A stretch of DNA of 64,000 nucleotides from positions 4,510,303 through 4,574,302 of the forward strand of contig CM082582.2 in assembly GCA_040954595.2 (NCBI GenBank), read 5' to 3'. Source of the stretch: Balanoglossus misakiensis (taxonomy: Eukaryota > Animalia > Hemichordata). This document shows, in pieces, positions 12,536-64,000 of the stretch (its first letter is position 1; the number at the start of each line of letters is the position of its first letter). The notes under the pieces are model-generated. The model did no database searches, was not told where the DNA came from, and saw only the letters and a list, made by a program, of their open reading frames with translations. The position numbers and the translations under genes were made by a program.

Positions 12536-24508
<11,973 letters not shown>

Positions 24509-24728
24509 TTTCTGCAAATACATAAAGACCCAACTTCAGGAAACCTACCACAGGTATCATTTTCAGATATAGAGTACGTTGGAAAAATTCGTACTTATTG
24601 ACCAATTAACTGCAAAGTTTCACATTATACATTTAGAGTTATCGTGTTGAATTCGTAAGATAAATTATTTTCACATGTATTATACTTTATTTAAATACTG
24701 CTGTTTCTAATCAAATTTCGGAAAGTAC

Positions 24729-40733: not shown

Positions 40734-43220
<2,487 letters not shown>

Positions 43221-44506: not shown

Positions 44507-44731
44507 AGAAGGGGTTCATTACATCAATTTGTGACAAAGAAGAGAAGATACACAGTTCACATCGTGCGTTTCATGATGTTTATTACTTTCCGTACTCGGA
44601 CCTTGTAGAACCAGCAACCGGATACGACACCACCGTCGGCTCGTGGGAGTTCTACCAATTATAATATATAAGTATAAGAACAACAGATAAACGCCTTATC
44701 GATATTGAGGCTTTTACATCCGCGGAAGACG

Positions 44732-46624
44732 ATGTCTGCGTGCAAACAGCTAACGGGCAACATACACGATCGACGTCCGGAACTATCCAGTCTGTTGCTG
44801 CAAGTATTGAAAGGTGCTGACAGGGATCATTTGAGTGACATGAATAGCGGTAAACATGTAAAGCTCTATCGCAGACTGGTCTCCATACAACCGAACCATC
44901 ACGAGGTGTCTCACGGTGTATATGTCCTACTCAGTTTAGCATTGAGGCGTGACATGCACCATGAACTAGAATTGATAAGTTACATATGCTCGGAATGGTT
45001 ACGGTTGTATAAGGTAAAGGTATCAGCCAACACCCTTCACAACATGTACCATCGTGTTATTGAAACCGTTGCCAAGAGTAATTTGGCGGATGCGACGTTG
45101 TGTACCAGTGTAAGACCCACAGAATCGTGCGACGGTGAAGCTGTGGCATATTTTATACTTCGGTCATTGTACGCACTTGTGGAAGTACCAGCAGGTATGA
45201 TGCTTGACTCGCTCAAAACTGGTAAGGAGCAACTGTGGCATCGCAAGGCGTGTACGATATGTAGTCAATTGTAGGTCTTTGTGTTGCGCCATCGACGGAA
45301 AGAGCAAACATTATGTGATGCGACTATTGGTGATGTCTACACAACCCGTCGATAGCCTGTCCGGCAATATAAAATCAGTAGACGTCCATCACATTTGATC
45401 ATTCAGCCCATGCAATCGGACATGACAACTCTGTCGGAAAACACCAATAAGGTCGTGCCAGTAGTAAATGTTATTCCAATCGAGGCAAGTGCAAGCAAGA
45501 CAGATTGCTGTCAAATGACGAACGAGGGCTTGAACACAAAAGCAGTGTACGATTTGTTTCCAGATTTTTCAGATGAAGACTCATGCATGGAATTCGCTCG
45601 ATTATCCTGCAGTTTGGACGACGACGTATTCACCGAAACACAAATTGGATCAATGTCAGGCGTTTCAGAGAAGCTTAGTGACAAGACACCAGCGGTGATA
45701 AAAGACAACGCGTGTACCAAGACGCAGCAACGTCCATCATCGATTGATCTGCAGTCACCCTTCTCAACTTGGAATATCAGTCCCATGTCTGGTATCGATT
45801 CCGCACCGGGTAGATTTTACTACATGCGTTTGGGATCCATCTCCGATGCCGAAGAAAGTGATACTGGAGTCATCGACAAGGTATCGGACTGCTCCGAGCC
45901 TATGCACAACACACTGCCACATTTTCCATCATCTCCTATCGACATCCCATTAACACCGGATGCCGTTAAGGATGACTCTGAGTCGATAGCCTTATCAAAC
46001 GGCAACACAAGGATGGGGGCTACAAACAAGTCAATGCTTCTTCCGCGTCATAACGAAGAAGGCGATAATCTTACTGCTTATGACATGATGTCAACGAGGC
46101 GTAAAAAGTCCACGAAGAATAAACCACGTGATTTGGACAAACATGAAACTCCCCCCCAAATGGAAGACCAACTGCCAGCCAAATTATCTACGCCGCGTTC
46201 AAGGTCTAAGAAGACTAAGCCACCTGGTCGGAAAAAGCGTGAAACTTCCCCCCACACGGAAGACCAACTGCCAGCCAAATTATCTACGCCGCGTTCAAGG
46301 TCTAAGAAGACTAAGCCACCTGGTCGGAAAAAGTGTGAAACTTCCCCCCACACGGAAGACCAACTGCCAGCCAAATTATCTACGCCGCGTTCAAGGTCTA
46401 AGAAGGCTAAGCCACCTGGTCGGAAAAAGTGTGAAACTTCCCCCCACACGGAAGACCATCTGTCAGCCAAATTATCTACGCCGCGTTCAAGGTCTAAGAA
46501 GACTAAGCCACTTGGGCGGAAAAAGCGTGAAACTTCCCCCTACATGGACGAACAACTGCCAGCCAAAAAATCTAACAAAGCTTCGAAATCGAACAAGACT
46601 AAGTCGCACAGGGTGAACAAATAG
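44732..46624 (+). pseudogene. ~630-codon orphan gene with a basic repeat C-terminus, interrupted by two in-frame TAG codons
   Basis: ORFs 44705-45274 and 45395-46624 are in the same frame, separated only by TAG at 45272 and 45353. They could instead be two genes. Confidence 0.55.
46145..46567 (+). repeat. 96-bp coding tandem repeat, ~4.4 copies
   Basis: ETSPHTEDQLPAKLSTPRSRSKKTKPPGRKKR; units start at 46145, 46241, 46337, 46433 and 46529. Confidence 0.95.
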
Positions 46625-46824
46625 GACCATTGAATCGAACGAATTAAATGCATAAAATAACCATTGTTCCGTATAACATACTATTAATTGTACCGATATG
46701 TCGTTTCACCGACACTGGTTATAGTCTAACGTTTTTAGTTTGAATGTATGAACGTTCTACTATACGCATGGGTTGTAGTGCTGTTCGTGAACCTGTCAAT
46801 TATTGCGAATAAAGTGTTCTGATA

Positions 46825-47886
46825 TTAAATATACATTGACTCGTAATTCTGTTGCATGTTCAGATCTATCTTTGGTGGTCTTGCTTGTACATCTGTAGAG
46901 AATTCATAATTCAAGCAGAACGATCCAACTTGTTTTGTAAAACAAGGTGTCTCTAACCCTCTCTTCCCTATTCCAACATAGCCCATACTCTTACACTGAC
47001 TGAATATATTATCGTCGCTAGAGTAACTGAGAGCTGGATATGCGTAATTAAACGCAGGGTTGCCTCCATTCGACCTCATTCCTACCACATAATGTAATTT
47101 AGATCCCGAATATGTGATTCCGTCTGTTCCGCCACTCGACCATTTAGCATTTGGTACTGGTGTAATGTCTGTCACGCCAGAATACATACACGTAATTAAA
47201 GGAATATGCCATCCGTGAAAGACTTCTTGACCATTGAATGACTTCATGAAACCAATGGGACTGAAACAATTCGTAAACATTTCAGGTGAATCGATAAGAC
47301 TCAACACAAGTTCGATTGAATCCAGACCATAGTTTTCGTTGGCATACCTAATGTAGTCATCGTAATTAAACACCTCATTAGCTACAGTCTTCCAGTTTGA
47401 CCGTTCCCTTTCATCTGATGCCTTTTTAGTAATAATGTTTTGTAACCATTTCAATGGCATCGCCTTCTTAAATTCACCCCTTGGGCCACGAAATTGGTAC
47501 TTTGGGAAACCAACCGCTGACTGACCATAATTAAGAGTCACTTTCTCTGGGCCAGTATACAATAGCAAGAAATCGCCTCTGTTGAAAAAGTCTCCCAAGT
47601 CGTGGTTAAATGGTCTGTTAGTGCACGTGATATCGTGCGTGTATTCCCTGATTGTCTTATAATCAGGATTTACTTGATCTGCAAATAAGGGAGCTACTAA
47701 TGGACCGTCGGTTTGCGTGAATACATTGTGTAAATCCCATGGGTCGTGATAACTGGGCGTGTCGAACGGGGGATATAGCGTCGGATTTGGGACTGGGTTT
47801 ATTCTCGACCGTGTGACAACATCCCTATGGACACCTTGATAAGTAGGTTTCCTGTTAGGATATGGAAATAAATCAGCCAGTTCCAT
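46825..47886 (-). CDS. hypothetical protein, 353 aa
   Basis: Intronless ORF with ATG start, rich in P/Y/F/G/N; no recognised domain. Confidence 0.75.
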   Translation of the reverse strand: MELADLFPYPNRKPTYQGVHRDVVTRSRINPVPNPTLYPPFDTPSYHDPWDLHNVFTQTDGPLVAPLFADQVNPDYKTIREYTHDITCTNRPFNHDLGDFFNRGDFLLLYTGPEKVTLNYGQSAVGFPKYQFRGPRGEFKKAMPLKWLQNIITKKASDERERSNWKTVANEVFNYDDYIRYANENYGLDSIELVLSLIDSPEMFTNCFSPIGFMKSFNGQEVFHGWHIPLITCMYSGVTDITPVPNAKWSSGGTDGITYSGSKLHYVVGMRSNGGNPAFNYAYPALSYSSDDNIFSQCKSMGYVGIGKRGLETPCFTKQVGSFCLNYEFSTDVQARPPKIDLNMQQNYESMYI

Positions 47887-48030
47887 TTCGTGTAATAATT
47901 GTGCAATGCACCAACTTGTTTAATATGTATCTTTATGTTTGTTGCACTCGGATGTAAAAAAAAGTCCACTCATTACACTTCTTACATACTGCATTCTAAC
48001 GCGCACACTGCGTGTGTTTATGGTCACGTC

Positions 48031-48284
48031 GCATTTAATTCATCATTATATTAATTGTAGTTGACAAAAGGACTTGAATAAAAAACAAATACGCTCATGA
48101 CGTATCCTTACATACCAGACTCTAATGCATATGCTATGTTTGAGCGCGTACATGACGCATTTAATTCATCATTATATTAATTGTAGTTGTCAAAAGGAAT
48201 TTAATAAAAAAAACAAATACGCTCATGACATTTCCTTACATACCAGACTCTAACGCATATGCTATGTTTGAGCGCGTACATGAC
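48031..48284. repeat. ~126-bp tandem duplication
   Basis: GCATTTAATTCATCATTATATTAATTGTAG...GCGCGTACATGAC at 48031 and 48157. Confidence 0.92.
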
Positions 48285-48370
48285 ATATTGAAATCCGTCT
48301 AATTCAACGCACATCGTAACGATATCAGTTCGTATCAAGACGAATAATTGTTCTTTAGTTCCTGTCTCTT

Positions 48371-48763
48371 CTATCTAACCATTTTCATATGGATAGGTTC
48401 CACTCCCGATCGCCCTTCATATCGAGCACATATAGCACTGTCTTGTAAGAGTCTGATCGTATACATCTCGGCTGCCATCTGAAGACTGTCAAAAGCTTGT
48501 CGAGTAAATTTGATCTCTTTTGAATGATTTCTGCGAACGATCTCTCTAACTATAGATTTGAAAACCGGTTCGTCGATGACGAATGGATGTCCTGTATAAA
48601 AATAATAACAGTGAATATTGAACGAGTATCACGGCCGCTAAAGTTATTGTGAATTAAGCGTCAGTTCATGCCGGAGTTATTGAGTGTACATACCGATGGT
48701 CGGTGAACGATTCTCTTTGATTGAACATCTTTGCTTGTACGGTGAAAACGCTTTCCCCCGCAT
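48371..48763 (-). CDS. divergent histone H3-like protein, 96 aa; exons 48763-48694 and 48591-48371
   Basis: MRGKAFSPYKQRCSIKENRSPTIG/HPFVIDEPVFKSIVREIVRRNHSKEIKFTRQAFDSLQMAAEMYTIRLLQDSAICARYEGRSGVEPIHMKMVR aligns with the H3 fold ([57 protein letters not shown]). Phase-1 GTATGT..TACAG intron. Confidence 0.8.
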
Positions 48764-48916
48764 GATGATACGTCTTTTGAGAAGTCTGAACCCGAACTGT
48801 CCTTGATAGACGATACTAAGAACTATATACAAGAGTTATGTCACGTGGTAATAGACATCGATATGAATGTACTAATTTAACTGCTTCACATGACAAGCTA
48901 TGCATTGTGTAGACCG

Positions 48917-49113
48917 ACATCATGACTACTTACTCCGACCTGTGATGCCAAACTGTAGTTCCCATGTTTTATCACCGCATACTGCACGTCCTGGCGTCCT
49001 CACATCAGCATATGTGCGACTTTACACTTTGAAATCATGACATCGTGATTACTTACTCCAACATGTGATGCCATACTATATTTCCCATGTTTTATCACCG
49101 CATACTGCACGTC
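48917..49113. repeat. imperfect direct repeat (~74 bp, period ~123 bp) in the divergent promoter region
   Basis: TACTTACTCC..TGTGATGCCA..TTCCCATGTTTTATCACCGCATACTGCACGTC occurs twice. Confidence 0.85.
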
Positions 49114-49242
49114 GTTCTTAGACTATTTCATGATGCCACCGATGCGACTTCACGCGCTTATATATATGTGTGTACACACACACGACCGCATACCCATCTT
49201 GTTCACATCGCCAATAACCGAGAAGTCCACTCAAGTGTTGAC

Positions 49243-50862
49243 ATGGCCGAACTATTCAGTGTTTCAATAAGGAGGCCGGTCAGTATCATTTTGTAATACC
49301 TTTTCCGTATTTTTACATCTTCGGGTGGCATAACCCCCACCTTTTATTTCTTTACTTAGGTGAGTATGTGGCATTTGAGACACGTAAATAAGGACGCGAA
49401 ATGTAAAGCTATGGGAATAGCCAAGAAATTAGAGACAGCGCCCACTAGCGGCCGAAAAACAATGTCGAAAGGTGAGTATCGCGCGTTCGTCAGATATGCG
49501 TTATATTTAATGGTTTTGCGTTTCTGTGCGGTCGTTGATGACCGAGCCAATGATCCGTGTAAAATCAGCACCCATACTTCGAGATATCGGTGGTTTCTTG
49601 AACCATTGTATTTTATTCCGGTTTCAGGCACGAACATCGTTCTACACAATTCAGTACAGTGTTCACAGCCCTTACCCGAAACCTCTCACGTATTGGACGC
49701 CTTGACTAGAGTACATTGTGTGATTGAAGGCTGTTACAACCCAAGTGCCAGAATAGTCAGCACCGATAATGTACACGGTCTAATGCACGCTGTGCAGATG
49801 GCATACAGAAAAAGCTATCCGTTGGTTTTGAGTCCAGATATTGTGTGGTTGTGTATTTCACAAGGATTTATGCAACACATGTGCTCCGACGACCGTTTGT
49901 ACCGCCTACTAATCAAAACTCACGAGAATACAAGCGTTGAATCTACCATGTCCCACCTCGACGACAAGTCAGAATTTGGGGAATGGAAAACTGCGTTAAT
50001 CGACTTGTCAAACCATGTTCGCGAAACCCTAGGAGAGTGTAATTACGGAATGATGACACCAGACTTTACCACAACCACCCTACAAGATAAAATTGTAGGA
50101 GATTTGACAGTGTCTGCCCAAGTGGACCCGAAGTTTTCGTATTTGCTGCAACCAGGTGAAGTAAAAAATCAGCGTCCTTTGACTTCGAATGGAATTCCCT
50201 CTATTTTTTTAGAAGGCTGCCTAGATGATTGGACGGCGATCCGGCGTAATACTGTCAAATTGGGGTGTTATGATCTGAACTGGTGGACCGATGGTGTGGT
50301 AAAAATTCTTGACAAATTTATAAAGGCGAAAGAAGGAGTGATCGACAGAGAATTCTGGTCAGGCATATATGAGGCAAGTATTGTAAAGGAGATTGCATGA
50401 ATTATTGTATTTACCCCTCTTAGTTGTTTCGAGTATCAATTATTTTGAACCATGTATATGTATTCCGCGGTTACAATCATAACACGTTTGTGTTTTGGGG
50501 GTTTTCTGTGGGGTGGGGGGTGGGGGTGGAATACCATCCCTTATACATCGTCTCTTTCGCTCTCTCATTATCAGATGGTTGAGTACCCATGTGGCCCATG
50601 TATCACCGGGTGGATCGTCGACCTGTTTCCGTATTTCATGTACAAACAGGACCGAGAATCAACAATACTGGCGGACTCTTTTCCATCTGGTCTGTCGATA
50701 AACCCTTTCAACGTGGGACAATCCGCAGAAGTCTCGAAACTGGCGCTTGTAAGCGGGTTCATGGGAGTATCTCAAGACGCTGATACACTAGCTCTCAGAC
50801 CGGAATTGGGATGGGTCGTTCTCAACCACAACAAGAACAACGGCTCACCGACCAAGATATAA
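49243..50862 (+). CDS. DUF4419-family protein; predicted exons 49243-49278, 49360-49471, 49628-50373, 50575-50862
   Basis: HGLMHAVQMAY..PLVLSPDIVWLCISQGF, PDFTTTT, GIPSIFLEGCLDDW, FWSGIY, GPCITGWI, FPSGLS and LVSGFMG follow the DUF4419 pattern. Splice sites are phase-compatible; the last donor is probably GCAAGT. Confidence 0.75.
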
Positions 50863-51144
50863 CAGTTGATATTGTAAAATATGTTTGAAATCATTCGTTA
50901 TACAGAGAATAAAATAGAGTCAATGCGCGTGCGTAGGTTTGACAAGAGAACATTGTTACCTGTATGCATGGAGAGCGTCCAAAAGTATGAGGCTCCCATT
51001 TCTTAGACATGGCGAAATATGGCCACCTTGAAAGTGTTTGTTAAAACGTTATACAATTTTAGAAGGAAATATATCACACTTGACACAATAACTTCTGTCC
51101 GCGTATTTATTTATTTATTTAGTAAAATACAAGTTCTTTTATAT

Positions 51145-52533
51145 TTACTGGGTGAACATATGAGGATGAATATTACGCTTTATGGCAGAATCTCTGTTTT
51201 CTCCGTGTTTATTTTTCTCTTCTTTGGGAGTGGACTGACTGGAATCTATGTCGGTCTCTTGTGAAGTTTCGGTGTGTATAAGGTGTCTCGTATTCCCAAT
51301 CATTTCGATGTCCGGAGGTAACCTCCCCCGGTTATTCGCAATAGCATACGCGGTAGAAGTTGATGAAGGTACATACCCACCATGGAACGCGAGCAGTAAT
51401 CCGTGATATACAGTCAATATGGCCGCTCGGATCACCCACGCTGTATACAATATTTTCCCCCATAAAGGTCCGACACTGTTTATAGGACAGTGCCTTGCAT
51501 CTCTTCCAGCTAAATTTGAAGAAAGTATACTTTGTATACACTTGTCTTCAGAGACAATGTCATGTACACTGTAACATTTCGGGAACGCAGGTATCCCATC
51601 GTTTACACATGGCCCGCTAATGAGAAAAATGCCATGTTTGAGTAAATCCAAGACAGCATATGCTACCGAGCTGAGGGCAAAAATATAAGCCACTACAGAC
51701 AGTACCCGGACAACGCAGGTGTCTTCCTGTTTACGATTGGACTCTCGATATAGCAAGACTTTACTCCCTTCTAAGTAATAACTCAATATACAGTTCACTA
51801 AAAATGCCATCGTTGGGGGCCATGTTATTAGCTCATATTTACCATAGGATGGTAGCAATTCGACAAACAAACAAGCTATCATAATTATCATTCCAAACAA
51901 ATACTTTGTAAAGGGAATATTCCCGTATACAAACGACTGATATTGTCTGTCGTATATGTGAAACTGCGTATCTGTAGTACATCGTTCTTGCCCGCGTGTA
52001 TGTATATGTATTAACAGTGGTAAAACTCCGCTTGGAACATATCTCAACAGACACATAATTATGTAATACATGGCTGCTGCTTCTCGTCCCAATCTCACGT
52101 CCGGACACCGTTCGTAGTCCACGTTGAATTTCAGAGGATTTTGTACAGACAGGAAGCGAGTACATTGAGCCAGTGACATATTTAGACATTGCACGTTCGT
52201 TCTCACATCCCGTTCGGCAGTGGAACAGTTAGCCAAGTGTTCCATTATATTAAACATCAGAGACACGTTTGCACAAACGAAAAGTAGAATACATGCCACC
52301 GAGGCCAATTTCGATAGTATCGTATGCACCATCACATCCCGTTTTTCGTGCGATTCACTAGCAAATTTAGAACACAAGTAATATACTATAGCCGGAAAGA
52401 TGACTTCATAGTCTACCAGTGAATATATGTCCGTTTGAAAGAGAATTTCTACTAACCACGTTAAGAGTAGGCACAATACAATGATAGTGGCCCAAAATTG
52501 GTCTTTCATTATTCCAATATCATACAATAACAT
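51145..52533 (-). CDS. multi-pass membrane protein, 462 aa
   Basis: About 8 hydrophobic segments and two Cys-rich loops; intronless. Confidence 0.75.
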   Translation of the reverse strand: MLLYDIGIMKDQFWATIIVLCLLLTWLVEILFQTDIYSLVDYEVIFPAIVYYLCSKFASESHEKRDVMVHTILSKLASVACILLFVCANVSLMFNIMEHLANCSTAERDVRTNVQCLNMSLAQCTRFLSVQNPLKFNVDYERCPDVRLGREAAAMYYIIMCLLRYVPSGVLPLLIHIHTRGQERCTTDTQFHIYDRQYQSFVYGNIPFTKYLFGMIIMIACLFVELLPSYGKYELITWPPTMAFLVNCILSYYLEGSKVLLYRESNRKQEDTCVVRVLSVVAYIFALSSVAYAVLDLLKHGIFLISGPCVNDGIPAFPKCYSVHDIVSEDKCIQSILSSNLAGRDARHCPINSVGPLWGKILYTAWVIRAAILTVYHGLLLAFHGGYVPSSTSTAYAIANNRGRLPPDIEMIGNTRHLIHTETSQETDIDSSQSTPKEEKNKHGENRDSAIKRNIHPHMFTQ

Positions 52534-52593
52534 TTACGGGATCGAATGCACGCAAATACAAAATATATATATATGTTAAGTTTTTTAGGGTCC

Positions 52594-53445
52594 TTATCGC
52601 CTGCAACTAGGAAACACAGGTATCTCAGTCATTAATTTACCGCGTCCGACACATACAAATGATCGGGTGTTTTTGAAAACAGCGTGACATCCTTTGTCGA
52701 ATTCTTCTGGAAACCTTGGGTCCCAACCAGCCTCCTTCAACATTCTGGTGAACGCAGACTCTGTTAATATTTGACTCAATTTGATAACTTTGGGTGATTC
52801 GGTCGGGTCTATTTTGTCTTTGAAACGTGTAAATAACCCCTTTTTACGCGATGACTCAAGTATCAATTTAGGCATTCCAGTCGACTGATACAATCTGATA
52901 TCACTATTCCTGACACACTTGCGGACACAATCGTCCATTTTACACCAATCTATATATTTGTCTTTGAATTCAACACGCTTAAACTGCACGGGGATACTGG
53001 TTGGAGGTACAGGTAGAGATATTTCACGACCGTCACCCCTCATTACCCAACGGAGCTGTTGCCAGTTGCATAACATGGTTACATAATACTGTTGTAAATC
53101 CACATATTGTTTCCCAAGCAGATCTATTGGTACATCACATTCTCTTATATCAACAAACACAGTTTTGTCATTAGTTGCACACCGAACAGGTATGTTTGCA
53201 TATGCGCACACGTATGGGTTCGGCAACTCCAAATCGTCGACAGATTGTTCATAGGAACCAAATCTCAAACAGTCTGTGCTACAGTCTAAAACCACTGTGA
53301 CCCGAGGTGGTAATTGATCGATATGCAATGAGAAAAAAGTGGATTCTTTGGCTGTGTCCATCTTTGTGACACCATGACCTAAAACATTAATACATTTGCT
53401 CACGTTCATCCATGTATTAACACATTCACACGTCGGTTGGTTCAT
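52594..53445 (-). CDS. hypothetical protein, 283 aa
   Basis: Intronless ATG ORF, 60 bp from its neighbour. Confidence 0.7.
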   Translation of the reverse strand: MNQPTCECVNTWMNVSKCINVLGHGVTKMDTAKESTFFSLHIDQLPPRVTVVLDCSTDCLRFGSYEQSVDDLELPNPYVCAYANIPVRCATNDKTVFVDIRECDVPIDLLGKQYVDLQQYYVTMLCNWQQLRWVMRGDGREISLPVPPTSIPVQFKRVEFKDKYIDWCKMDDCVRKCVRNSDIRLYQSTGMPKLILESSRKKGLFTRFKDKIDPTESPKVIKLSQILTESAFTRMLKEAGWDPRFPEEFDKGCHAVFKNTRSFVCVGRGKLMTEIPVFPSCRR

Positions 53446-53538
53446 CTACATTTATTTTACTCGTGCGAAACATTTGAAATCTAATTACTGACAAAACTGA
53501 GTGTAAAAAGGGTGTTACGTGTCTTGGTATAAGTTATA

Positions 53539-54783
53539 ATGAGTTATCTGAGCTACCGTTGCGGCGGTAACCGCGACAAGAAATACCCCAAAAAAACAGT
53601 TTCGTATAACGATCAGAACCTAACGCCGAACTTCCCTGAACAACAGATCCATTCACTGGTGAACCTTCTACAGAACGTTAATTTAGGACAAGGTGCCCTT
53701 ACGCAAGATGTCCCTAATGAACAGGTACAAAGTTTGCGGCCAAAAGTGTTGTACGCAAAAAAAGCTCATGGAGAGAAGAGTTCGGAAGCATTCTCTGGCC
53801 TTTTTGGGCGCAAAATCCCGCCCGTCGTTTTTGCGAACGAATTAGACTCTCCGGGTTGGGACGTATGTCTGGAGATGGTATGGGAACCTAATTTCCGTAT
53901 TCTCGACGAAAGGAACACTCGTAAATGTATTGACTTGAGTGTAGCTTCCAAACAATATGACGCTGTAGTCAGAGAAGTTGGTACAGCACCTTCTAAAACA
54001 GTTTGGCGATTATTTCGACCGGAAATGATTGGCGCTATTCGGCTTTTGTCACCCCACAGACATTTTCAAACACCAAAGTGGGAACCCACTGAAATACCAG
54101 CATGTCCAGAGTTTGCGTCATGGGAGTCTGGCAGTCGTCGTCTACTGTCAGAAGAAGTCAATTTCTTATTAACACCAGAATGCGAATACAATGCATGTAC
54201 CTTAATGGTGAGTGAGGCATTGAGTGAGCACTTCGGTGATTGTTACGACCTTCGCACAGACGTTATTGATGTAGAATCATGCGCTAGACGCCTGGGCCAA
54301 AAACCAGAGAAGTTGGCGGAGCAGATGATTAATACGTTCTTAAAATGTACCTACTTTCGCCAGAGTGGGTGTTGGCTATCTAAGCAATCGACAACTTATC
54401 GCGATATAGCGATTTGGAAATATAGTGGGCTGCGTCCGTCACACCTGTTTTCACACGACGGACAACACATGGAAAGGCATGTTGTGCGGCATCACCCGAC
54501 CAGATGTGAGTTGTTCATACCAGATGGTAAACACAGTATGTGTTGCAGACCATCCCATCTATGCTATGGTTCGTGCAAAGCAAACTCAAGAGACATGGAA
54601 TTGAGAAAGGCAGTATCTAATTTATTATCATTGATCGACGACAGTTCAACGCATAATCACACGTGGTTAAAAGTACAAACACATATAGATAGTTTAGCTG
54701 AATTATTAAATCCACGCGGCTACGTTAATCGAGAAGTTAATCACCCGTTTGACCAGGACACCATCCCAGTATCCACAGAGTAA
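53539..54783 (+). CDS. protein with a C-terminal His-Me finger (HNH-like) endonuclease domain
   Basis: SGCWL...HVVRHHPTRC...MCCRPSHLCYGSCKANSRD matches the VRH..C...CCNPxHLxxGTxxxNxxD pattern. Confidence 0.7.
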   Translation: MSYLSYRCGGNRDKKYPKKTVSYNDQNLTPNFPEQQIHSLVNLLQNVNLGQGALTQDVPNEQVQSLRPKVLYAKKAHGEKSSEAFSGLFGRKIPPVVFANELDSPGWDVCLEMVWEPNFRILDERNTRKCIDLSVASKQYDAVVREVGTAPSKTVWRLFRPEMIGAIRLLSPHRHFQTPKWEPTEIPACPEFASWESGSRRLLSEEVNFLLTPECEYNACTLMVSEALSEHFGDCYDLRTDVIDVESCARRLGQKPEKLAEQMINTFLKCTYFRQSGCWLSKQSTTYRDIAIWKYSGLRPSHLFSHDGQHMERHVVRHHPTRCELFIPDGKHSMCCRPSHLCYGSCKANSRDMELRKAVSNLLSLIDDSSTHNHTWLKVQTHIDSLAELLNPRGYVNREVNHPFDQDTIPVSTE

Positions 54784-54856
54784 GAATGTTTACGGAGGAA
54801 GCAGGTGTAACCGGATATATTTCCGAACGACACCCATCTGACGACAACTTCTTGAA

Positions 54857-55364
54857 AGGCACATAAGCTGCAACTCTTGGGATAATTATCATAATTTTTG
54901 TTTCAAACTGTACTACCATTAGTCTATGCAGATGAAGGCAGAGAAATAAACACAAGCATTATAAACCCTAAATATGAGTGGATATGCAAGTTCTAAGCAG
55001 ATAAATAATAAAGCTTTGCCGCAAGCGATTATGGCCGCAACCGTGGGGAAATAAAAAAAAAAAAGAAAATGTTGCATTTCCGGTTATGAAACTTTATAAA
55101 CAAAACATGAACTCATCCACTTGAGCTCATGGAATTAGTAAATGTACACCACTGAGACATTGTATTTTCCTTTTTCTTTCCAATATTGCTCTTTTTTTAA
55201 ACATTGCAGGAATTTTGGTTTTTCTTCAATTTGTGGCCATTTTGTCATAAATACGTGTTGAGCTTGATATATTATCATGAAATATCATTTAATAGACACG
55301 ATTAGAAGCATATACGAGATTATTTAAAACTTTAATTTTTTGTCCAGTTGCAGCTCATGTGCCT
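54857..55364. mobile_element. second copy (opposite orientation) of the 36205-36714 MITE
   Basis: Ends AGGCACATAAGCTGCAACT / AGTTGCAGCTCATGTGCCT. Interior is the reverse complement of the 36.2 kb copy (e.g. CATCCACTTGAGCTCATGGAA). Flanks TGAA and TCAA. Confidence 0.85.
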
Positions 55365-55746
55365 TCAAGTCTTTCTTTCCGGCTATCTCTTTCGCGTGAT
55401 TACGGATATGAATACTTCTCACTCTAAGGTATTTGTACGCAACAGGTTACTCTAAAATGACTCAAGTGCACAGGCGGTCATCACGGCCTCCTCCAGATGC
55501 AAATATTTCACGTTACTCACTACGTGCACATTTTCAGGTGGAATAATATGCATGGTCGTGTAGTCGTTATTTTGGTTTTTCCTCTGTTTTGAGTTTGAAA
55601 GGTTTGGTTTATACCCTTGTCGATAGTTGCGTCAGTATCACATTTCATAGAGAATTCCTCGTTCTGTCGCATAACTGCAAATCATAAGTAATCCCGGCGT
55701 CATAAAATTATCTTCCACATATGTACGCAACCTGATCATTTCAAAT

Positions 55747-58700
55747 TTAATACATTGGGGCTTTATAACCCCCAAACTCGCCATTGTCTTCCAACCCGTC
55801 GTGTCCTTCAACAATTTTAGACTTTACAGTAGGTGCCAGCTTGAAAATATTAGTTTGGGGGGTTACCGCGTCAACTTCGTTTGAGATTTCAACAAACCTT
55901 GAATCGCGCAGCTTGTTAACAATTAGGTCAATTTCATTGTCATCGACTGAACGAGGGAAATATCGACGAATGTCGAATAAATAAAACGGTTCCTGTTTGG
56001 ATGTCGATGCAAAATCTAACACAGGTTTCTCTAAGGTCTCGCGTATTTTAATCTTGAAGTCGTTGACGGCCTTCTCGTCTTTTAATAAAACCGTGTCATA
56101 GTCTGTAGAACTCACAAGCACCTGCCTTGACTTGTTTTTAATGTCAAACGATTCTCTGGACATCAATGGCTGCTTACATAGATTAAATTGTATGATGTTT
56201 AACTGACGTCGATTGTATACCGGTGTCTTACAAATAGGACAGGACACTTGTTCAACGTTCTCATCAAAGGCGTTCACTCTCATATATTCTTGCAAGCACG
56301 TTTCGTGGAAAAGATGACATCCATTCCAACAGTCTATCACGTTATTTTGTTCAGAATATTTTATTAATTCTTTGTCTGACATTTCTTCTCCGTGATCCCG
56401 TCTCAATCTCAACTCGCGACAGTTTATCGCCTGCAATTGCCGGTATGGCCCCAGCTTATCCAAACATAGGGCGCAATTCGTGGCCTCCCATTCTCCGCGT
56501 TCGTATTCCGGGGATGTGCAATCCGAAGAAGGTTCCGTGAACGACGTGTCGTAATAAGATTCGTCAAAGAGGACAACGCACTTATAAGGGTCACCACATC
56601 TGTAATAACGCTTTCGGAATAGGTTTATCTGGGCACCGGTTCTGTTTTGATTTAACATATTGAATAAATTTACTACACACGACGTCCACAGTGCAAAAAA
56701 ATTTCCAGGTCTAACCAAACACCCGCTGACACATTGACTTTGTGTGCGATGTTGCAGAAAAGATACGCCTTCCTTACTGAGATGGAACGTATCAGAGAAA
56801 AATTTAACCACTTCCGATTTGACAGAAAGTATGGCATCTTGGGTAGGAGTTTTGGAATGTACCATCAGATATTTTATCAAATAGCAAAGTCCATAAAAAC
56901 AATCGTTGGGGTTAATTTGAATTTCACGCGGATCCAGTAATACAAGTCGGCGGTCATTAGCTGGACGCAATTGTCCAGGACCGTGTTTTTCACGAAGGGT
57001 TGTTGAAGCACCATGAAATGGCACTCTGGAAAACACTCGTCCATAGCCCACACCTGTAGTAGTTCCGATTGGAATTAATTGACAACTGCTCTCGGAGTTT
57101 GTAGGTGGCTTTGTCAAAACACTGTCGTTTTGTTGTAACGGGGCCGATTGAGAATTTCCATCTCGGTCGTGATCACTTCTCCTACTGGCTGTGACAATCG
57201 GTGTACAACTACCCCGCAGTTCAACGGGACAAGTTAGGCGTGGCTTTGTCAAAACACTGTCGTTTTGTTGTAACGGGGCCGATTGAGAATTTCCATCTCG
57301 GTCGTGATCACTTCTCCTACTGGCTGTGACAATCGGTGTACAACTACCCCGCAGTTCAACGGGACAAGTTTGACGTGGCTTTGTCAAAACACTGTCGTTT
57401 TGTTGTAACGGGGCCGATTGAGAATTTCCATCTCGGTCGTGATCACTTCTCCTACTGGCTGTGACAATCGGTGTACAACTACCCCGCAGTTCAACGGGAC
57501 AAGTTAGGCGTGGCTTTGTCAAAACACTGTCGTTTTGTTGTAACGGGGCCGATTGAGAATTTCCATCTCGGTCGTGATCACTTCGCCTACTGGTTGTGAC
57601 AATAGGTGTACAACTACCTCGCAGTTTAACTGGACAAGTTTGACGTGGCTTTGTGCACAGCATAGGATCTAACCCCTTTTCTGCACTCTGCACACCAGTA
57701 CCAAACGAAGTTGCTTGTTTATCGTCATCCTCACTGTCATCTGAAGATGAAGACCATTTTGTCAATTCGGGATGTGTTAAGGTGGAGTTGTCGACACGCT
57801 CTATCCTTTTTTTAATAGCACACAGCTCACTTCCGCGCGCCGTGTCCTGACCGACATTCCTTTGTCTTCTGTTACAAAGCCGATTGGCCAATACGCTAGC
57901 GCGGATGGTTGACTCGGTGCGATCTCCCTCGTGTACTTCCAATTGTAACACTTTATCAGAGTGAAGACTAAAATCTCGTCCCGCACACCTTTGGAGAGAG
58001 TTCTGAAAGTCAACATCCGCCAGGTGTATTGCCTTCCATTGCTGACTGGAAAATACAGATTCCTCGCACTTTCGTCTGAAATCAGCAACAGAATTGTTTT
58101 CGTCTGTTCTTTGTTTCAACACGGACAACCACATTTCATGCAACATGTTGTATTTAGTGTCGTCGATAACTCCCAGTTTACCCGCATGTAGATGCCTACT
58201 GAGCGTGGTTAACGTACGATCCATTGCTTTACAAAGGTCCCCATCACTTGTGTCTCGAATGCATTTTTGCAAGCGTGTAATTTCAGCCCCTAAATTGTTA
58301 AGTTTGGTTGAATTCTGTGTATGTATCTTGACGAATTCTTTACACCTTTCACCTAGGTTCGGCATTCTCATGCATAAATCTCTATTTAACATTCTCGGGT
58401 TTCGATCAAGCCATTTATTTTCGTCAGAGAAATGGTAGAAATCGGCGGTAGAACACGCATCAATACTCTTAACTTCTTCAATCTGTTCCTCTGTATATCC
58501 GTGATCTCGCAATATATGCCTATTTAAGGACCGTTCATTATGAAAGCGGTCGTGGCAATTACGTATTCTACAAGTAAATCGAAACCCTAGTAAGACTTCC
58601 TGGGTTTTCGCGTATGGTCCTAATTCTTCCATAAGAACTCGTATTTTCCGGCGTCTGTCCGGTTGGTCTTCTGCAAGCAAGTCGAAGTGGCTGACTGATT

Positions 58701-59694
58701 CCGACAAACCAAACACTCTGACGTTGGTGAGTGACCAATCAAACGTGGACAGGTACTCTGTTAAACCACGAGTGTGAATAAATCCATATTTCTGTCGCAA
58801 ATGTTCTAAAAGGACATGGAAATAGCACACTCCTCGTGGTTGATTGTCATTATCAGCCAAGAAATAAATGCAATCGGAAACAATAGTTTTGGGGACATTC
58901 GCCACTAATTTATCGCCATGCATTCGGACAAGTGTGACGTTGTTATTACAAGTATCGCAGTTGACAACGCTTCTAAGACGGCCTAGGAAAAATACGCATG
59001 TTTGAAATCCCAGGTTTCGTTCCTTTAGGTTAGTCATTGAGACATAGTCGCCACTGGTCAATGCCCTTTGCAAGAATCGCCATTGGTCGCGCATAAACGC
59101 GGGTTCTCCAATCAAGATAGAATGGGGTCGGTTAAGCATGGCCCTTGACAAGATCATACTGTGATCTCTGTCGCTAAACGTGTAAAACTTATCAAGGCCA
59201 CTGGTGTCTCTCATGTCATTAACCCATTCGGGGTACATTGTGTGTGTCTCTCTCTGTTCGTCGTTTGTCTTCATGCGCTTGTTAGCACTCTTGGTGTCTC
59301 CGTCACTCGCGTTCACGAGTGGACTGAGAGTCGTCGACAATGCTCGAACGAAATCAGCTTGACTCGCGTATATGCCATACAGACTGAAATTTTTTGGTCT
59401 CATTACCATCTCGTTGATTAGTTGATATAAATCAATCCGGAACCCGGGTGTCGGTTGACCAGTAGAAAATTCACGGGCCATGTTAGCAATTTGATTAATA
59501 GTCAAACAATCATGTTGGCTGACAACTTTGTATATCTTTTCAAGAAACGTGTGCAATGACTTTTCTTGCACAGTGGTCGAGTCAGTGTTCAGTTTATCGA
59601 TGGTAGATGAAGGTTTCCGCCCAGAGCCTGAGTCGACGCCAAACACCAATAAAACATCTTTACTGAGTTCTGGATAGAGCGGGGACAGATTCAT
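55747..59694 (-). CDS. 1315-aa protein with a C2H2 finger, tandem repeats and a C-terminal RING-H2-like domain
   Basis: FTCRIRNCHDRFHNERSLNRHILRDH (C2H2). CALC...GCHLFHETC...CPIC (RING-H2 with a long insert). Intronless. Confidence 0.8.
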   Translation of the reverse strand: MNLSPLYPELSKDVLLVFGVDSGSGRKPSSTIDKLNTDSTTVQEKSLHTFLEKIYKVVSQHDCLTINQIANMAREFSTGQPTPGFRIDLYQLINEMVMRPKNFSLYGIYASQADFVRALSTTLSPLVNASDGDTKSANKRMKTNDEQRETHTMYPEWVNDMRDTSGLDKFYTFSDRDHSMILSRAMLNRPHSILIGEPAFMRDQWRFLQRALTSGDYVSMTNLKERNLGFQTCVFFLGRLRSVVNCDTCNNNVTLVRMHGDKLVANVPKTIVSDCIYFLADNDNQPRGVCYFHVLLEHLRQKYGFIHTRGLTEYLSTFDWSLTNVRVFGLSESVSHFDLLAEDQPDRRRKIRVLMEELGPYAKTQEVLLGFRFTCRIRNCHDRFHNERSLNRHILRDHGYTEEQIEEVKSIDACSTADFYHFSDENKWLDRNPRMLNRDLCMRMPNLGERCKEFVKIHTQNSTKLNNLGAEITRLQKCIRDTSDGDLCKAMDRTLTTLSRHLHAGKLGVIDDTKYNMLHEMWLSVLKQRTDENNSVADFRRKCEESVFSSQQWKAIHLADVDFQNSLQRCAGRDFSLHSDKVLQLEVHEGDRTESTIRASVLANRLCNRRQRNVGQDTARGSELCAIKKRIERVDNSTLTHPELTKWSSSSDDSEDDDKQATSFGTGVQSAEKGLDPMLCTKPRQTCPVKLRGSCTPIVTTSRRSDHDRDGNSQSAPLQQNDSVLTKPRLTCPVELRGSCTPIVTASRRSDHDRDGNSQSAPLQQNDSVLTKPRQTCPVELRGSCTPIVTASRRSDHDRDGNSQSAPLQQNDSVLTKPRLTCPVELRGSCTPIVTASRRSDHDRDGNSQSAPLQQNDSVLTKPPTNSESSCQLIPIGTTTGVGYGRVFSRVPFHGASTTLREKHGPGQLRPANDRRLVLLDPREIQINPNDCFYGLCYLIKYLMVHSKTPTQDAILSVKSEVVKFFSDTFHLSKEGVSFLQHRTQSQCVSGCLVRPGNFFALWTSCVVNLFNMLNQNRTGAQINLFRKRYYRCGDPYKCVVLFDESYYDTSFTEPSSDCTSPEYERGEWEATNCALCLDKLGPYRQLQAINCRELRLRRDHGEEMSDKELIKYSEQNNVIDCWNGCHLFHETCLQEYMRVNAFDENVEQVSCPICKTPVYNRRQLNIIQFNLCKQPLMSRESFDIKNKSRQVLVSSTDYDTVLLKDEKAVNDFKIKIRETLEKPVLDFASTSKQEPFYLFDIRRYFPRSVDDNEIDLIVNKLRDSRFVEISNEVDAVTPQTNIFKLAPTVKSKIVEGHDGLEDNGEFGGYKAPMY
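57106..57654 (-). repeat. 135-bp coding tandem repeat, 4 copies
   Basis: TKPRxTCPVELRGSCTPIVTASRRSDHDRDGNSQSAPLQQNDSVL; period 135 (57106, 57241, 57376, 57511, 57646). Confidence 0.95.
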
Positions 59695-60001
59695 TTCATT
59701 ACTTTTCTCGGTTATTCGCCGAAACTGTTTTGGAACGTACGCTAATATCCACTTACAAAAGAGGGCACGGTAGTGTGTAGAGGTAATGTGCTGTAATTGA
59801 ATCTTTGTAAGAACACCTGTCGAGAAAAGTGCCTCATTAAACAGGACTCATCTTCCTTGTTTAATATATATCTTTATGTTTTCATTATCGTATGCATATA
59901 CAAAATACATTTCAATACCCCACGATTGATAAGAGAGACTGTATCCTATTTATTCACGTGTATGTTTTTGAGGAAGAAACGACCATGTCGTATTCAGTGA
60001 A

Positions 60002-60793
60002 TTAGTTTCTTGTACGTGACACCCCTTGAATGCTGTCAGTATCTGCATGGTCTATTAGTAAGTCCGACTCGTAATCGTCTGTAGGATAAGGGTCGTTGTT
60101 TCTAAAATTGATCTCTCTAGTCAGCCTCTTGTGGTGATACAAATGTGTCGCTAAATGTACGAACGAAAACACGGCAATTATAATGAGACCACCCTTTACA
60201 ACGTCTTCACCGAACACTTTACAGAACCCAGTGTCTCTGTAATTGGGCGTCAGAAAACACATGGGTATGCTTTGGGCCGTTACCACAAGAATGCCGATGA
60301 CAAAAAGTGGAAACACATGTATAGCTATTCTCTCTCGCATATGGGGTTCCATGAGAGACTCCAGTATCTTCTCTTCCCCTTTGAAAGTCTTGTAAAGGAG
60401 ATACACTACGTTCAGCATCACGATAGCGCAGTCTATATACGCGGGATACACGCAAAATCTCAATATACCGTATAAATCTGGGATCTTACACGGGTCTCCA
60501 CCCGCTCTTTCACCTTGTACGACTAACATAATGGCTGCGATTGTGAAAAAAACAGCGTACACAAACTTTTGAAGATGAAGTAACAGATGGTCGTGAAATG
60601 CCCTCAGTCCCTTCTGTCTATAAACGTCTGTGACGCCATCATCCAGTCTCTTGAATTCTTGAACAGTTTTTAGGAAAACCTTTCTAGACGAATGCGTTAA
60701 AGTATCCCACCTGTCGCCCATCTGATTCTTAAACGGCCGTTTAGTCACATGTTGTTTACCGACAATCCGGGTATATTTTTTGCCGGGTGTCAT
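60002..60793 (-). CDS. membrane protein with ~4 TM segments, 263 aa
   Basis: Four hydrophobic stretches with Cys-containing loops. Confidence 0.75.
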   Translation of the reverse strand: MTPGKKYTRIVGKQHVTKRPFKNQMGDRWDTLTHSSRKVFLKTVQEFKRLDDGVTDVYRQKGLRAFHDHLLLHLQKFVYAVFFTIAAIMLVVQGERAGGDPCKIPDLYGILRFCVYPAYIDCAIVMLNVVYLLYKTFKGEEKILESLMEPHMRERIAIHVFPLFVIGILVVTAQSIPMCFLTPNYRDTGFCKVFGEDVVKGGLIIIAVFSFVHLATHLYHHKRLTREINFRNNDPYPTDDYESDLLIDHADTDSIQGVSRTRN

Positions 60794-60859
60794 TCTGATT
60801 TACTTAGTTACTTGTCTAATAACGTCGACGTTAATAGAACTAACCAGTGAATAAGTGTG

Positions 60860-61678
60860 ATGTCTCGCGCACACCCTTACACTACTTTAAAAAAAAATCG
60901 CCTCAAGACTTATTTGACAGTAACGCTGGTAGAAAAATGTAAGATAAATATTAAAAGGGCAAGAAAGGGTTACGTGGCTATCGACAAACGGTCTTCTAAA
61001 GAATGTCAGCTCACCGGTGTCTACAAGCAGATCAGAAAATATCATTTACCAGCAGAGTGTTACACAAATATTAAGCTACGACGACAACGGCGATCGCGCA
61101 CATACAGCACCAAATGCCCAAGGGAAGCCATGTACTTAGGAAAAAACATTGACAAATCAGTCAAACTTATGTTAAAAGAGAAACCTATCGCACACACTCC
61201 GGTGACACAAAGCATATTCAATTCATTGCGATATTTGGGATACACTCCGCTGACAGCACAACTTCCTGTCACAAACTTCCAACCGGATCAACAAGATTGT
61301 AAGTGGGGTGCAACTGTTGGTGTATTAGACCTCGTAGCATACAACCAAGAAAAGAAAATATATACAGCGATTGAACTCAAAACAACCTCTAAACACTACA
61401 GTGATATTAAAAAAGAACACGATTGGGCGAACCTTAATCCTTCGACCGGCTACAGGCGGTCTTTTTATTCTCAAGCGGTACTACAATCCCAGTTAGGAGC
61501 TCTCATGCTAATTAATACATTCAACTTAACAAGCGCTGATAGCTTAGTCATTGTTTATTCTTTCGCAGATAAATCCACCGTTATCGAATGTGTAGGACAA
61601 TTTAATAACACCACGTCGGCATCTGAATTGTTTCCATGGGTTGTAGGTTACAGGAAACAATGTGTACACAGAAGGTGA
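60860..61678 (+). CDS. PD-(D/E)XK superfamily nuclease
   Basis: GVLDLVAY...YTAIELKTT...QAVLQSQLG gives the D..ExK core plus a downstream Q helix. Basic N-terminus. Confidence 0.7.
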   Translation: MSRAHPYTTLKKNRLKTYLTVTLVEKCKINIKRARKGYVAIDKRSSKECQLTGVYKQIRKYHLPAECYTNIKLRRQRRSRTYSTKCPREAMYLGKNIDKSVKLMLKEKPIAHTPVTQSIFNSLRYLGYTPLTAQLPVTNFQPDQQDCKWGATVGVLDLVAYNQEKKIYTAIELKTTSKHYSDIKKEHDWANLNPSTGYRRSFYSQAVLQSQLGALMLINTFNLTSADSLVIVYSFADKSTVIECVGQFNNTTSASELFPWVVGYRKQCVHRR

Positions 61679-61717
61679 GATGTGTCACCTCGCGTCGACT
61701 GATAAACATCACGTCAC

Positions 61718-62013
61718 ATATATATATATATATAGATATAGATATATATATATATTAATATTAAGCAGTGTATTTACGCCAACTTATTAGTTGCTAAACA
61801 CTACGTCATGTATATGGGATAATAAATATTAATCATTCCCGGTACGGCGACGTATTAGTCGCTAAACATTACGTCATGTATATGGTATAATGAATATTAA
61901 TCATTCTCGGTACGGCGACGTATTAGTCGCTAAACATTACGTCATGTATATGGGGTAATGAATATTAATCAGTCCCGGTGCGCCGACGTATAAGTCGATA
62001 AACATGACGTCAT
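61718..62013. promoter_or_regulatory. (TA)n tract followed by a 68-bp tandem array (~3.4 copies) with CRE/ATF-like sites
   Basis: Units start at 61785, 61853, 61921 and 61989, carrying CTACGTCA, TTACGTCA, TTACGTCA and TGACGTCA. The repeat is certain; the regulatory role is inferred. Confidence 0.6.
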
Positions 62014-62064
62014 ACTTTGTTCTTTTATATTGGACTCGCACGTCGAGTGCCGTCAATCAGCACC

Positions 62065-62916
62065 ATGACTAGCACACGTGCACAAACGAGGGAAAAACGG
62101 AAAGCCAGCATCCGTAATTGCATGTCAGTGTTTAAGCGCTGTGAATTATACAGTTCTGCCAGTGGGATGATCGTCAAAACATTGTTTAATCGGAACAGCG
62201 CACCAGGCTTGGACACAAAGAACTGGGTGTTATCTATTCCCGAAGCTCCGGTTAGCCCTGATATGGAATTTGCCAGAGATGCCATTCCCCAGTCCTATTA
62301 TCTCAATGACGCTGGACTAGGCTGCATTCTCCATCACTGGTTGAGACGGTTCCCTGTCTGCTTCAGGCATGGCATGGGGAGGCCACGCACCATAGACCTG
62401 TTTCTCAACACTATCCAAAACCGGTTGAGACTGCCGTTCATATGGTGTGTAAAAGCTGATTTCGTACGTGATCAACAACTTTCTGAGACCACGAGTAAAC
62501 ACACCGTGAGATCCGTTCATATCAATAATGCCAGGCTTTACATCAACGCGGTCGTGCAAAACTCATTGGATGAGAAAGTACCCTTGCGCTCTCTCCTGGC
62601 CTTACCGGAAATGAAACTGATCGATCGGAATAGGGACCCGGACGAAAACGCCGCCATTCTGGACGCATTTCAGAATGTGTTCCGAGAGGTCTATGCCAGA
62701 AGCAAGAAGGAACATCCGTACCCTATGGTTGCAGAGGTCTCCGACAAGAAATACAAAGTCACGGTGAGTGAGTACTTTGTACCATTAACACGGAATGAAG
62801 ATCCTAACAACTGTACGGCGATTTCAGAAGAGTACAGAGAACTTCGTTCGTACGATGACTCCAAGGATGTACAGTGCTTGGTGTTTGACACGGGACATGG
62901 CACTAATGGACAGTAA
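62065..62916 (+). CDS. hypothetical protein, ~283 aa
   Basis: ATG in a CACCATG context, basic N-terminus, intronless. Confidence 0.75.
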   Translation: MTSTRAQTREKRKASIRNCMSVFKRCELYSSASGMIVKTLFNRNSAPGLDTKNWVLSIPEAPVSPDMEFARDAIPQSYYLNDAGLGCILHHWLRRFPVCFRHGMGRPRTIDLFLNTIQNRLRLPFIWCVKADFVRDQQLSETTSKHTVRSVHINNARLYINAVVQNSLDEKVPLRSLLALPEMKLIDRNRDPDENAAILDAFQNVFREVYARSKKEHPYPMVAEVSDKKYKVTVSEYFVPLTRNEDPNNCTAISEEYRELRSYDDSKDVQCLVFDTGHGTNGQ

Positions 62917-63347
62917 CATGGCGTACTTACAAGATGTGATTATCCCACATCTGTGTTGGGACAGTTGGAACTTTTGATTAGAACTTAATTCACAACTTGT
63001 AAAGCACATAGGCAATAATTCACTTTAGTTTATTTTATTCCATTTTATCGTTCAATACTGAGCACGTTTGCATGCGCCAGTTTTTGTTGACGTTACTTAT
63101 CCGAGCTATTTACATAATTGTTTTGTTTGGTTTGTTTATATTATTGTCCGTGCGACGTACACTGTTTACCATATTATGTTGGTTACTTTTTATTATTTAC
63201 AAAGGGGCAATAGCAAAAGTGGTGTATATTTGACTGATTTGTTAAATGTAGGTTTATTAGATGCATTTTATTAGATAAATGACATTCCAAATATAATCGC
63301 CTTGTTCTGTTTGTCACTTTTTTTAAAAATAGACATGGGAATGCCTG

Positions 63348-64000
63348 TCATGCATTTTTGTGTTGAACTAGGTGGGTAAAGTCGATCCGATGAGGCTCTC
63401 CACCACCCAAATGCGTCCAAGTGAGGAAGTTAATGATTTTGGGAACATTGAGGGACCGATATTTTATGCGTACACCTGTCTCTTTTATCAACAGTTCAAA
63501 TAACAGAGTATGATCGTCATCGATGTCCACAAAAAGGAAGGAAAACATTTCTAAATAATCCATCATTGTCACGATATTCTGTCCTAACGGGTTCAAGCAA
63601 AACTGGGTCGCTTTCAACGCCCTACACAGCATGCAATGGTGTTGTCCAAATTGTTGATAACTTGTATTACATTTTTGCAATTCACCCGACACCAGTTTTT
63701 TTATAGCGTCTGCATTTAGACATTCGCTCAGGATCAACTGATCGTCACAATCACAACGTTTGCTGATGTAGGTACTGATACAGTTAGTACCGCTTGAGCA
63801 CGGACGGGTCGCAAAGTTGTGAAATTCGCGAGGGGTGAAACAACATTCATTCATCATCGAAAGCGACCAGACGTCCGGCTGGAGCATTTCGTTGGGAATG
63901 CTTTTCATTCTGTCCACAATTGTCGCACATTTCAAGATATCCGACGTGACTTTCCTCTGGATGTACCGTCTAAGCGACACGTCACTATCCTCGCGATGAC
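63348..64000 (-). CDS. Cys-rich hypothetical protein (5' end beyond the window)
   Basis: Frame is open to the window edge. RPCSSGTNC...HCMLCR may be a zinc site. Confidence 0.7.
   Translation of the reverse strand, partial: HREDSDVSLRRYIQRKVTSDILKCATIVDRMKSIPNEMLQPDVWSLSMMNECCFTPREFHNFATRPCSSGTNCISTYISKRCDCDDQLILSECLNADAIKKLVSGELQKCNTSYQQFGQHHCMLCRALKATQFCLNPLGQNIVTMMDYLEMFSFLFVDIDDDHTLLFELLIKETGVRIKYRSLNVPKIINFLTWTHLGGGEPHRIDFTHLVQHKNA

Follow-up and report, generated by a model that had tools for sequence, protein, structure and literature searches.

Relation to described systems

Starfish and ribbon-worm genomes contain Herpesvirales-related regions that branch between Orthoherpesviridae and Malacoherpesviridae (bioRxiv 10.1101/2025.04.19.649669), malacoherpes-like elements occur in Branchiostoma and Capitella assemblies (PMC5552708), and peanut-worm and sandworm herpesviruses are known from transcripts (PMC6950620). 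We analyzed 64,000 nucleotides of the hemichordate Balanoglossus misakiensis (the window; contig CM082582.2, positions 4,510,303–4,574,302), in which gene layout, composition and contig depth delimit a virus-like element at 44,508–64,000, with genes on both strands and open to the right. We read it as part of the genome of an undescribed large DNA virus of the realm Duplodnaviria (the herpesvirus/mirusvirus realm), integrated here as one left-truncated copy out of a young multi-copy family, and give this joint claim a probability of roughly 0.6.

Like the starfish and ribbon-worm regions, the block appears to be large herpes-like DNA inside an invertebrate chromosome. Those regions were found and placed by their DNA polymerase; the part of the element in view has no such gene, so the lineages are not comparable, and the accessible parts of the preprint do not mention the H3 gene, the multi-copy status or the ends broken in a miniature inverted-repeat transposable element (MITE) that mark the window block. 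As with Malacoherpesviridae and malacoherpes-like elements, the host is an invertebrate, most genes are orphans, RING and PD-(D/E)XK proteins occur (as candidates in the block), and integration is proposed yet unproven. It differs in that none of its open reading frames (ORFs) matched herpesvirus families or malacoherpesvirus models at a significant score. Malacoherpesviridae-type BIR, FIC and Exo5 had no match among the 13 genes in view, which are part of the genome only, and where that family has zf-RING_5 the block showed zf-RING_2 below threshold.

Mirusviricota include episomal and integrated forms in Aurantiochytrium (PMC10132985, PMC12768974, PMC12606086 and PMC10827195 as a group), and a nuclear life is predicted for those mirusviruses that are rich in introns (PMC12768974). 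The H3 gene belongs to the mirusvirus core, with an occurrence of 54% in mirusvirus versus 2% in nucleocytovirus genomes (PMC10132985); viral histones surveyed elsewhere come mainly from Megaviricetes and Caudoviricetes (PMC13681535). Their core H3 and triplex proteins, and the spliceosomal introns and nuclear replication of some orders, resemble the block, whose triplex candidate and introns are predicted. Unlike the block, described mirusviruses have mainly unicellular eukaryotic hosts, and the host-range survey left out Metazoa (PMC10827195). PMC12606086 and PMC10145014 otherwise served as context only.

For multi-copy large-virus proviruses there are precedents in fish and crustaceans. Teratorn of medaka is derived from an alloherpesvirus. 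It is a multi-copy herpes-like genome with intact ORFs and low, latency-like expression in an animal chromosome (PMC5601938), and in copy number, coding integrity and location it resembles the block. Teratorn is fused to piggyBac and has terminal inverted repeats (TIRs) and target duplications; the block showed neither a transposase nor a viral terminal repeat, and a broken MITE forms its left end. In crustaceans, endogenous nimaviruses, also multi-copy and able to contain introns (PMC10871703), are likewise large DNA virus genomes kept in invertebrate genomes, yet they belong to another realm and use site-specific integrases with telomere, ribosomal DNA or microsatellite targets, none of which is visible here. 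The kind of element is thus known, as large-virus proviruses in animals. No description matching the gene set turned up in a literature search that took in few subscription papers, and the preprint on starfish and ribbon worms may cover the lineage in its figures or supplements.

A compact gene block with distant relatives

From 44,732 to the end of the window, 13 predicted genes occupy both strands with about 76% coding sequence, and intergenic gaps measure 60–602 nt, the gap that holds a MITE excepted. This agrees with the preliminary description, which had noted about 12 closely packed genes on both strands. Its term 'mostly intronless' holds for most of them; two genes, an H3-like gene and a DUF4419 gene, have a predicted spliced structure, each intron with good splice sites and one dividing a Pfam domain.

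These are the only two genes of the block that passed the Pfam cut-off, and the divergent histone and DUF4419 named earlier are both upheld. The H3-like gene (48,371–48,763, minus strand) is absent from the ORF list; two exons flanking a GT-AG intron (48,693–48,592) are predicted, with a short non-canonical N-terminal tail. Its exon-2 frame matched Pfam Histone at 1.3e-9, and all 60 of the PDB matches listed were H3-type. An H3 histone is a mirusvirus trait (core in 54% of genomes), though not an exclusive one. The DUF4419 gene (49,366–50,862, plus strand) matched in two pieces (2.3e-32 and 2.5e-6) on either side of a predicted GC-AG intron near 50,375–50,575; its 5′ exon structure is uncertain.

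Three ORFs were searched against those proteins of a large set that are of near-equal length, and yielded 13 (37–52% identity), two (57% and 28%) and one (41%) relatives. ENA, JGI or Logan assemblies are the source of all of them (13/13, 2/2 and 1/1); NCBI and UniRef contributed none. No relative was found in a viral contig collection, in scans that rely on short near-exact peptides. On one metagenome contig, L001, the four ORFs 51145, 52594, 53539 and 55747 (named by their start positions) have relatives at 39, 30, 42 and 34% identity with order and orientation kept; nonsynonymous divergence (dN) across the four genes is 0.54–0.72, and synonymous divergence (dS) is 2.5 or saturated. Since the relatives lie in unannotated assemblies and the gene order persists on L001, the block represents a conserved mobile gene set common to distant samples and not a local host invention.

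L001 further contains two tandem intronless serpin genes (2296–4542) and, at its left end beside them, a TIR element that is flanked by TTAA and has a fold-back element nested in it (113–1771), as if this contig too came from an animal genome. Two of the relatives, P0001 and P0020, have the same contig count (4) and longest contig (9,317), a hint of wider synteny. Cluster members of P0010, a relative of ORF 53539, sit on ENA contigs of 38–59 kb, big enough for capsid or polymerase genes.

ORF 46825 (353 aa; 46,825–47,886, minus strand) is a candidate triplex capsid protein of herpes/mirus type, an idea proposed before the structure search was made. With a fold model built from three sequences, the search returned the herpesvirus capsid chains 7fj1_T, 5zap_S, 8x9z_c and 6q1f_5 at ranks 3, 4, 6 and 31. 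Aligned lengths are 160, 132 and 127 residues for the first three of these and at most 79 for every other row. This is a weak hint that the protein may be a herpes-type triplex, which would favor a herpes- or mirus-like virus over other large viruses. A PDB sequence search with the candidate triplex alignment was blank, and the ESM Atlas gave no usable match for the relative P0018. A marginal prokaryote match of ORF 46825 (E 8e-4), an archaeal gene that reads as asparaginase/GatD-like, was rejected as chance.

The left junction and copy number

To the left of the element lies a truncated host MITE (43,871–44,507), which we take to be PIF/Harbinger-like. Its single intact terminus ends at 44,504, where a TTA triplet follows; the opposite one is missing, with no second terminus within the window. 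Over 43,871–44,504 the sequence matches a complete TAA-flanked MITE at 6,091–7,045 by 77–81%; its depth is very high, and loose contig ends fall at 44,502 and 44,507. The left edge of the element is better put at 44,508, its first unique base, or, with the truncated MITE included, at about 43,870. No transposase match, TIR or TTAA duplication of the Teratorn type was found at this junction, and no integrase or transposase was seen in the available part of the element. The left end is probably that of a copy broken inside the MITE, one of several near-identical copies, so what had been described as the left end of an integrated virus is probably no natural viral terminus.

The stretch was found in three runs of one sample (X1, X2 and X3), which may be the source of the assembly and are not independent of it, and contig depth is a crude measure of copy number. 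In X1, all eight listed contigs of element-unique DNA had a depth of 134–153 and 0–3 differing letters each per 0.8–4.1 kb, against host depths of 11–22 at 5.7–12.8 kb, 70–73 over a NACHT region and 28–55 just left of the junction; in X2 the depth was 374–668 over the element versus 21–203 for host DNA. Among host contigs, differences from the window reached 16 letters in 658 nt. High depth with low variation fits several near-identical young copies. In at least five places both X1 and X2 carry a letter other than that of the window, so the window copy is one variant among several.

A second host MITE, which we assume to be Kolobok-like, is inserted within the element (54,855–55,369, minus strand; 515 nt with inverted ends), between ORFs 53539 and 55747. 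It has high-copy depth and shares 88% identity with a host copy flanked by TTAA (36,200–36,716); on L001 the relatives of the two neighboring genes adjoin directly. The switch from host DNA after the cytochrome P450 (CYP) gene, as first described, is borne out by the 13-gene block, with the qualification that the block itself contains this host MITE. One X1 contig at full element depth runs 30 letters into it, and another starts inside the truncated MITE (at 44,474) and continues into the element; from the two we infer that both MITEs are present in the predominant copies, and both insertions would then be older than the multiplication. The flanks of the inserted copy (54,845–55,380) read TGAA/TCAA versus TTAA/TTAA in the host copy, reflecting either a non-canonical target or later changes.

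The most serious alternative, itself unlikely, is that the same virus was free or episomal in the sequenced animal and became linked to the CYP flank only during assembly, by way of a common MITE. A several-fold higher depth with almost no variation would suit replicating viral DNA, and the depth ratios of X1 and X2 are unequal. The join also lies inside a high-copy repeat: an unbranched X1 contig at full element depth (44,474–46,173) links the MITE end to the element, barely, by 31 MITE letters and the TTA, and no listed contig spans from host-unique DNA through the MITE into the element, which would fit an assembly join. Four observations speak for integration instead. A jump between whole copies should give a complete MITE, but the one at the join is without one of its termini. 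The other haplotype, in an X2 contig, matches 43,012–43,869 and continues with 81 non-aligning letters, departing exactly at the repeat start, where the break is therefore placed. The places at which both runs differ from the window indicate that its copy is not the predominant form. Finally, two host MITEs fixed in viral DNA point to a long nuclear, probably germline, residence. We consider integration here quite likely.

Lineage and meaning

A viral origin of the 19.5-kb block is the firmest of our claims and is very probable; membership of the herpes/mirus realm is favored with less assurance than integration. No HK97-fold major capsid protein, portal or terminase was recognized in the 19.5 kb, and neither a DNA polymerase nor a terminase gene lies inside the window; the element continues past 64,000. 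Nor did any of the 13 genes match Pfam models for a Nucleocytoviricota double-jelly-roll capsid, A32 ATPase, VLTF3 or RNA polymerase, with most of the element outside the window. Both options named in the preliminary description, herpes-like and mirusvirus-like, are favored over other large viruses by the triplex hint, and the lineage is still unassignable, as that description had also held.

An integrated virus of another realm, either a nuclear-replicating nucleocytovirus or a nimavirus- or nudivirus-like naldavirus, is a rival to which we give a small share of belief. In its favor, no single realm has a monopoly on histones, RING proteins, serpins or PD-(D/E)XK nucleases. A paper about LbFV, a filamentous virus of wasps, mentions DUF4419, and endogenous nimaviruses are multi-copy and can carry introns (PMC10871703). 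Against it, the sole structural hint consists of herpesvirus capsid chains, and histones occur in 2% of nucleocytovirus versus 54% of mirusvirus genomes (PMC10132985). We consider it improbable that the block is non-viral, whether a giant mobile element or a cluster of lineage-specific host genes that was duplicated recently: virion genes are unproven, the copy number and the host MITEs would equally fit segmental duplication and nearby host exons have similar CpG, but the packing is dense, nearly intronless and bidirectional unlike the host flank, gene order is retained at 30–42% identity on an unrelated contig and 0 of 16 relatives come from an annotated source.

A nucleus-transcribed large DNA virus in an invertebrate genome, as first proposed, is thus the best reading, given the gene order on L001, relatives only in unannotated assemblies, predicted introns, an inserted host MITE and the triplex hint. 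Such a virus would persist in the nucleus, where host RNA polymerase II would transcribe it and the host would splice its transcripts, as the predicted introns and TATA-like boxes suggest. The H3-like protein may act on chromatin, the RING protein could drive degradation of host proteins, two putative nucleases would serve DNA processing, and an HK97-type capsid would be stabilized by triplexes. Host MITEs would have entered the viral DNA before its multiplication, and this copy would have been joined to the CYP flank through a break inside a MITE, by repair or recombination.

The origin of herpesviruses from protist-infecting relatives is an open question, and invertebrate herpes-like viruses outside molluscs are mostly known by a fragment of a polymerase or terminase gene. 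An element that is young, intact in its coding regions and apparently multi-copy, with relatives in several other assemblies, could supply a whole gene set for the herpesvirus/mirusvirus tree, and it bears on whether a histone- and intron-bearing duplodnavirus infects animals. A more speculative proposal, which we hold only tentatively, is a new animal-infecting duplodnavirus lineage at the family level, between protist mirusviruses and herpesviruses, with a triplex of herpes type, an H3 like that of mirusviruses, spliceosomal introns and (in a relative) serpins. It would form young multi-copy germline proviruses through MITE uptake and MITE-mediated joining and would be latent, with a transcribed ORF 62065 driven by cAMP-response-element-like (CRE-like) sites.

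Remaining genes and regulatory signals

The enzyme labels of the preliminary description stand in part. ORF 53539 (414 aa; 53,539–54,783, plus strand; 13 relatives) has a motif, CWLS...RHH...CCRPSHLCYGS..AN..DM, that is invariant in 14 sequences, one of them with RHD. We take it to fit the His-Me/HNH pattern; Pfam, PDB searches with the ORF and with the alignment, and fold searches were blank, the structure model is poor at the motif, and prokaryote genomes gave 0 matches for the alignment. ORF 60860 (272 aa; 60,860–61,678, plus strand; one relative at 41%) is a likely PD-(D/E)XK nuclease, a label obtained by setting the conserved alignment motif D...IELKT...Q against the family pattern as we assume it; Pfam gave only YhcG_C at E 0.034 and the PDB sequence search was blank. 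It presumably resembles herpes UL24. For the proposed RING ligase a match exists below threshold (zf-RING_2, 7.3e-5), in a C-terminal RING-like finger of ORF 55747 (1,315 aa; 55,747–59,694, minus strand; 34% identical to its syntenic L001 relative), which also has a 135-bp coding repeat in 4.1 units.

ORF 51145 (462 aa; 51,145–52,533, minus strand) has six hydrophobic segments and ORF 60002 (263 aa; 60,002–60,793, minus strand) four; the ORFs at 44,732–45,274 (180 aa, plus strand) and 52,594–53,445 (283 aa, minus strand) matched no family. ORFs 51145 and 52594 have the syntenic L001 relatives at 39% and 30%. The ORF at 45,410–46,624 (404 aa, plus strand) has an acidic N-terminal half and a basic C-terminal half with a 96-bp coding repeat in 4.5 units, and the 3′ part of a last ORF (at least 216 aa; 63,348–64,000, minus strand) runs off the window. 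PHROGs and NCBIfam searches gave nothing useful, and Rfam had 0 matches within 43–64 kb. A 51-codon open frame at 44,509–44,661 was weighed as the remnant of a gene interrupted by the MITE and dropped because an in-frame stop directly precedes it and it has no database match.

The coding repeats, first called perfect, are 94% and 97% alike. Contigs of X2 omit 288 nt (three 96-bp units) at 46,175–46,464 and 123 nt (one unit) at 48,958–49,082, through either unit-number variation between copies or collapse of short-read contigs. Polyadenylation signals follow eight of the 13 genes; as about seven are expected from local non-coding DNA, these signals, listed earlier in support of a virus, are no evidence. 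TATA-like boxes precede four of the 12 scorable genes. Upstream of minus-strand ORFs 46825 and 55747, a 26-nt AT-rich element recurs at 96% identity (47,915–47,940 and 59,856–59,881), possibly a shared viral promoter. Intergenic tandem repeats comprise one of 128 bp (47,981–48,284) and one of 68 bp in 3.4 units with CRE-like octamers (61,785–62,013), upstream of ORF 62065. Such octamers were rejected as an above-chance signal, with 10 matches versus 4.8 expected and 6 of 100 shuffles reaching 10.

ORF 62065 (283 aa; 62,065–62,916, plus strand) has no family and no usable ESM Atlas match. It is the only element-unique stretch found in the small run X3, in which one 1,111-nt contig covers 62,092–62,900 with 0 differences at depth 12.5, versus 3.9–7.6 for the host gene CRIF1. 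The X3 contigs cover exon 1, exon 2 and the 3′ untranslated region of CRIF1 (8,429–10,790); because they fall on these parts, X3, guessed to be DNA, may actually be RNA, although none of the listed runs is recorded as such, and ORF 62065 would then be a latency-type transcript. X3 has depth in six of 30 bins of 42,950–62,900, which is not read as silence of the other genes.

Host flank and composition

To the left of 44.5 kb lies animal DNA with microsatellites and MITEs, encoding a sialyltransferase, a NACHT protein, two-exon CRIF1, a GT4-conflict protein, a macro/RING/Deltex gene and a P450, a gene set that suggests an invertebrate and probably a deuterostome. The last host gene before the element is this CYP gene (40,734–43,220, plus strand; Pfam p450, 1.8e-84), whose last exon was read from the sequence. 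From host to element, GC rises modestly from 39.3 to 42.1% and the observed/expected CpG ratio from 0.76 to 1.07. A two-state Markov fit beats 299 of 300 block permutations, with the best cut at 37–38 kb and not at the block edge because the CYP exons are likewise CpG-rich and element-like. A per-bin host-versus-element score turns element-like at 44,500 and dips host-like over the internal MITE. The earlier proposal to compare composition across 44.5 kb is thus answered by the change of sign there, within a modest shift whose best single cut lies elsewhere.

Two host genes are of immune type: a single-exon GT4-conflict glycosyltransferase (20,627–24,535; 4.8e-33) and the macro/RING/Deltex gene (30,605–34,845), with a 3.4-kb exon built of 219-bp repeats. 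The complete MITE at 6,091–7,045 sits among short direct duplications of its flank (63 nt and 43 nt; 6,031–7,201).

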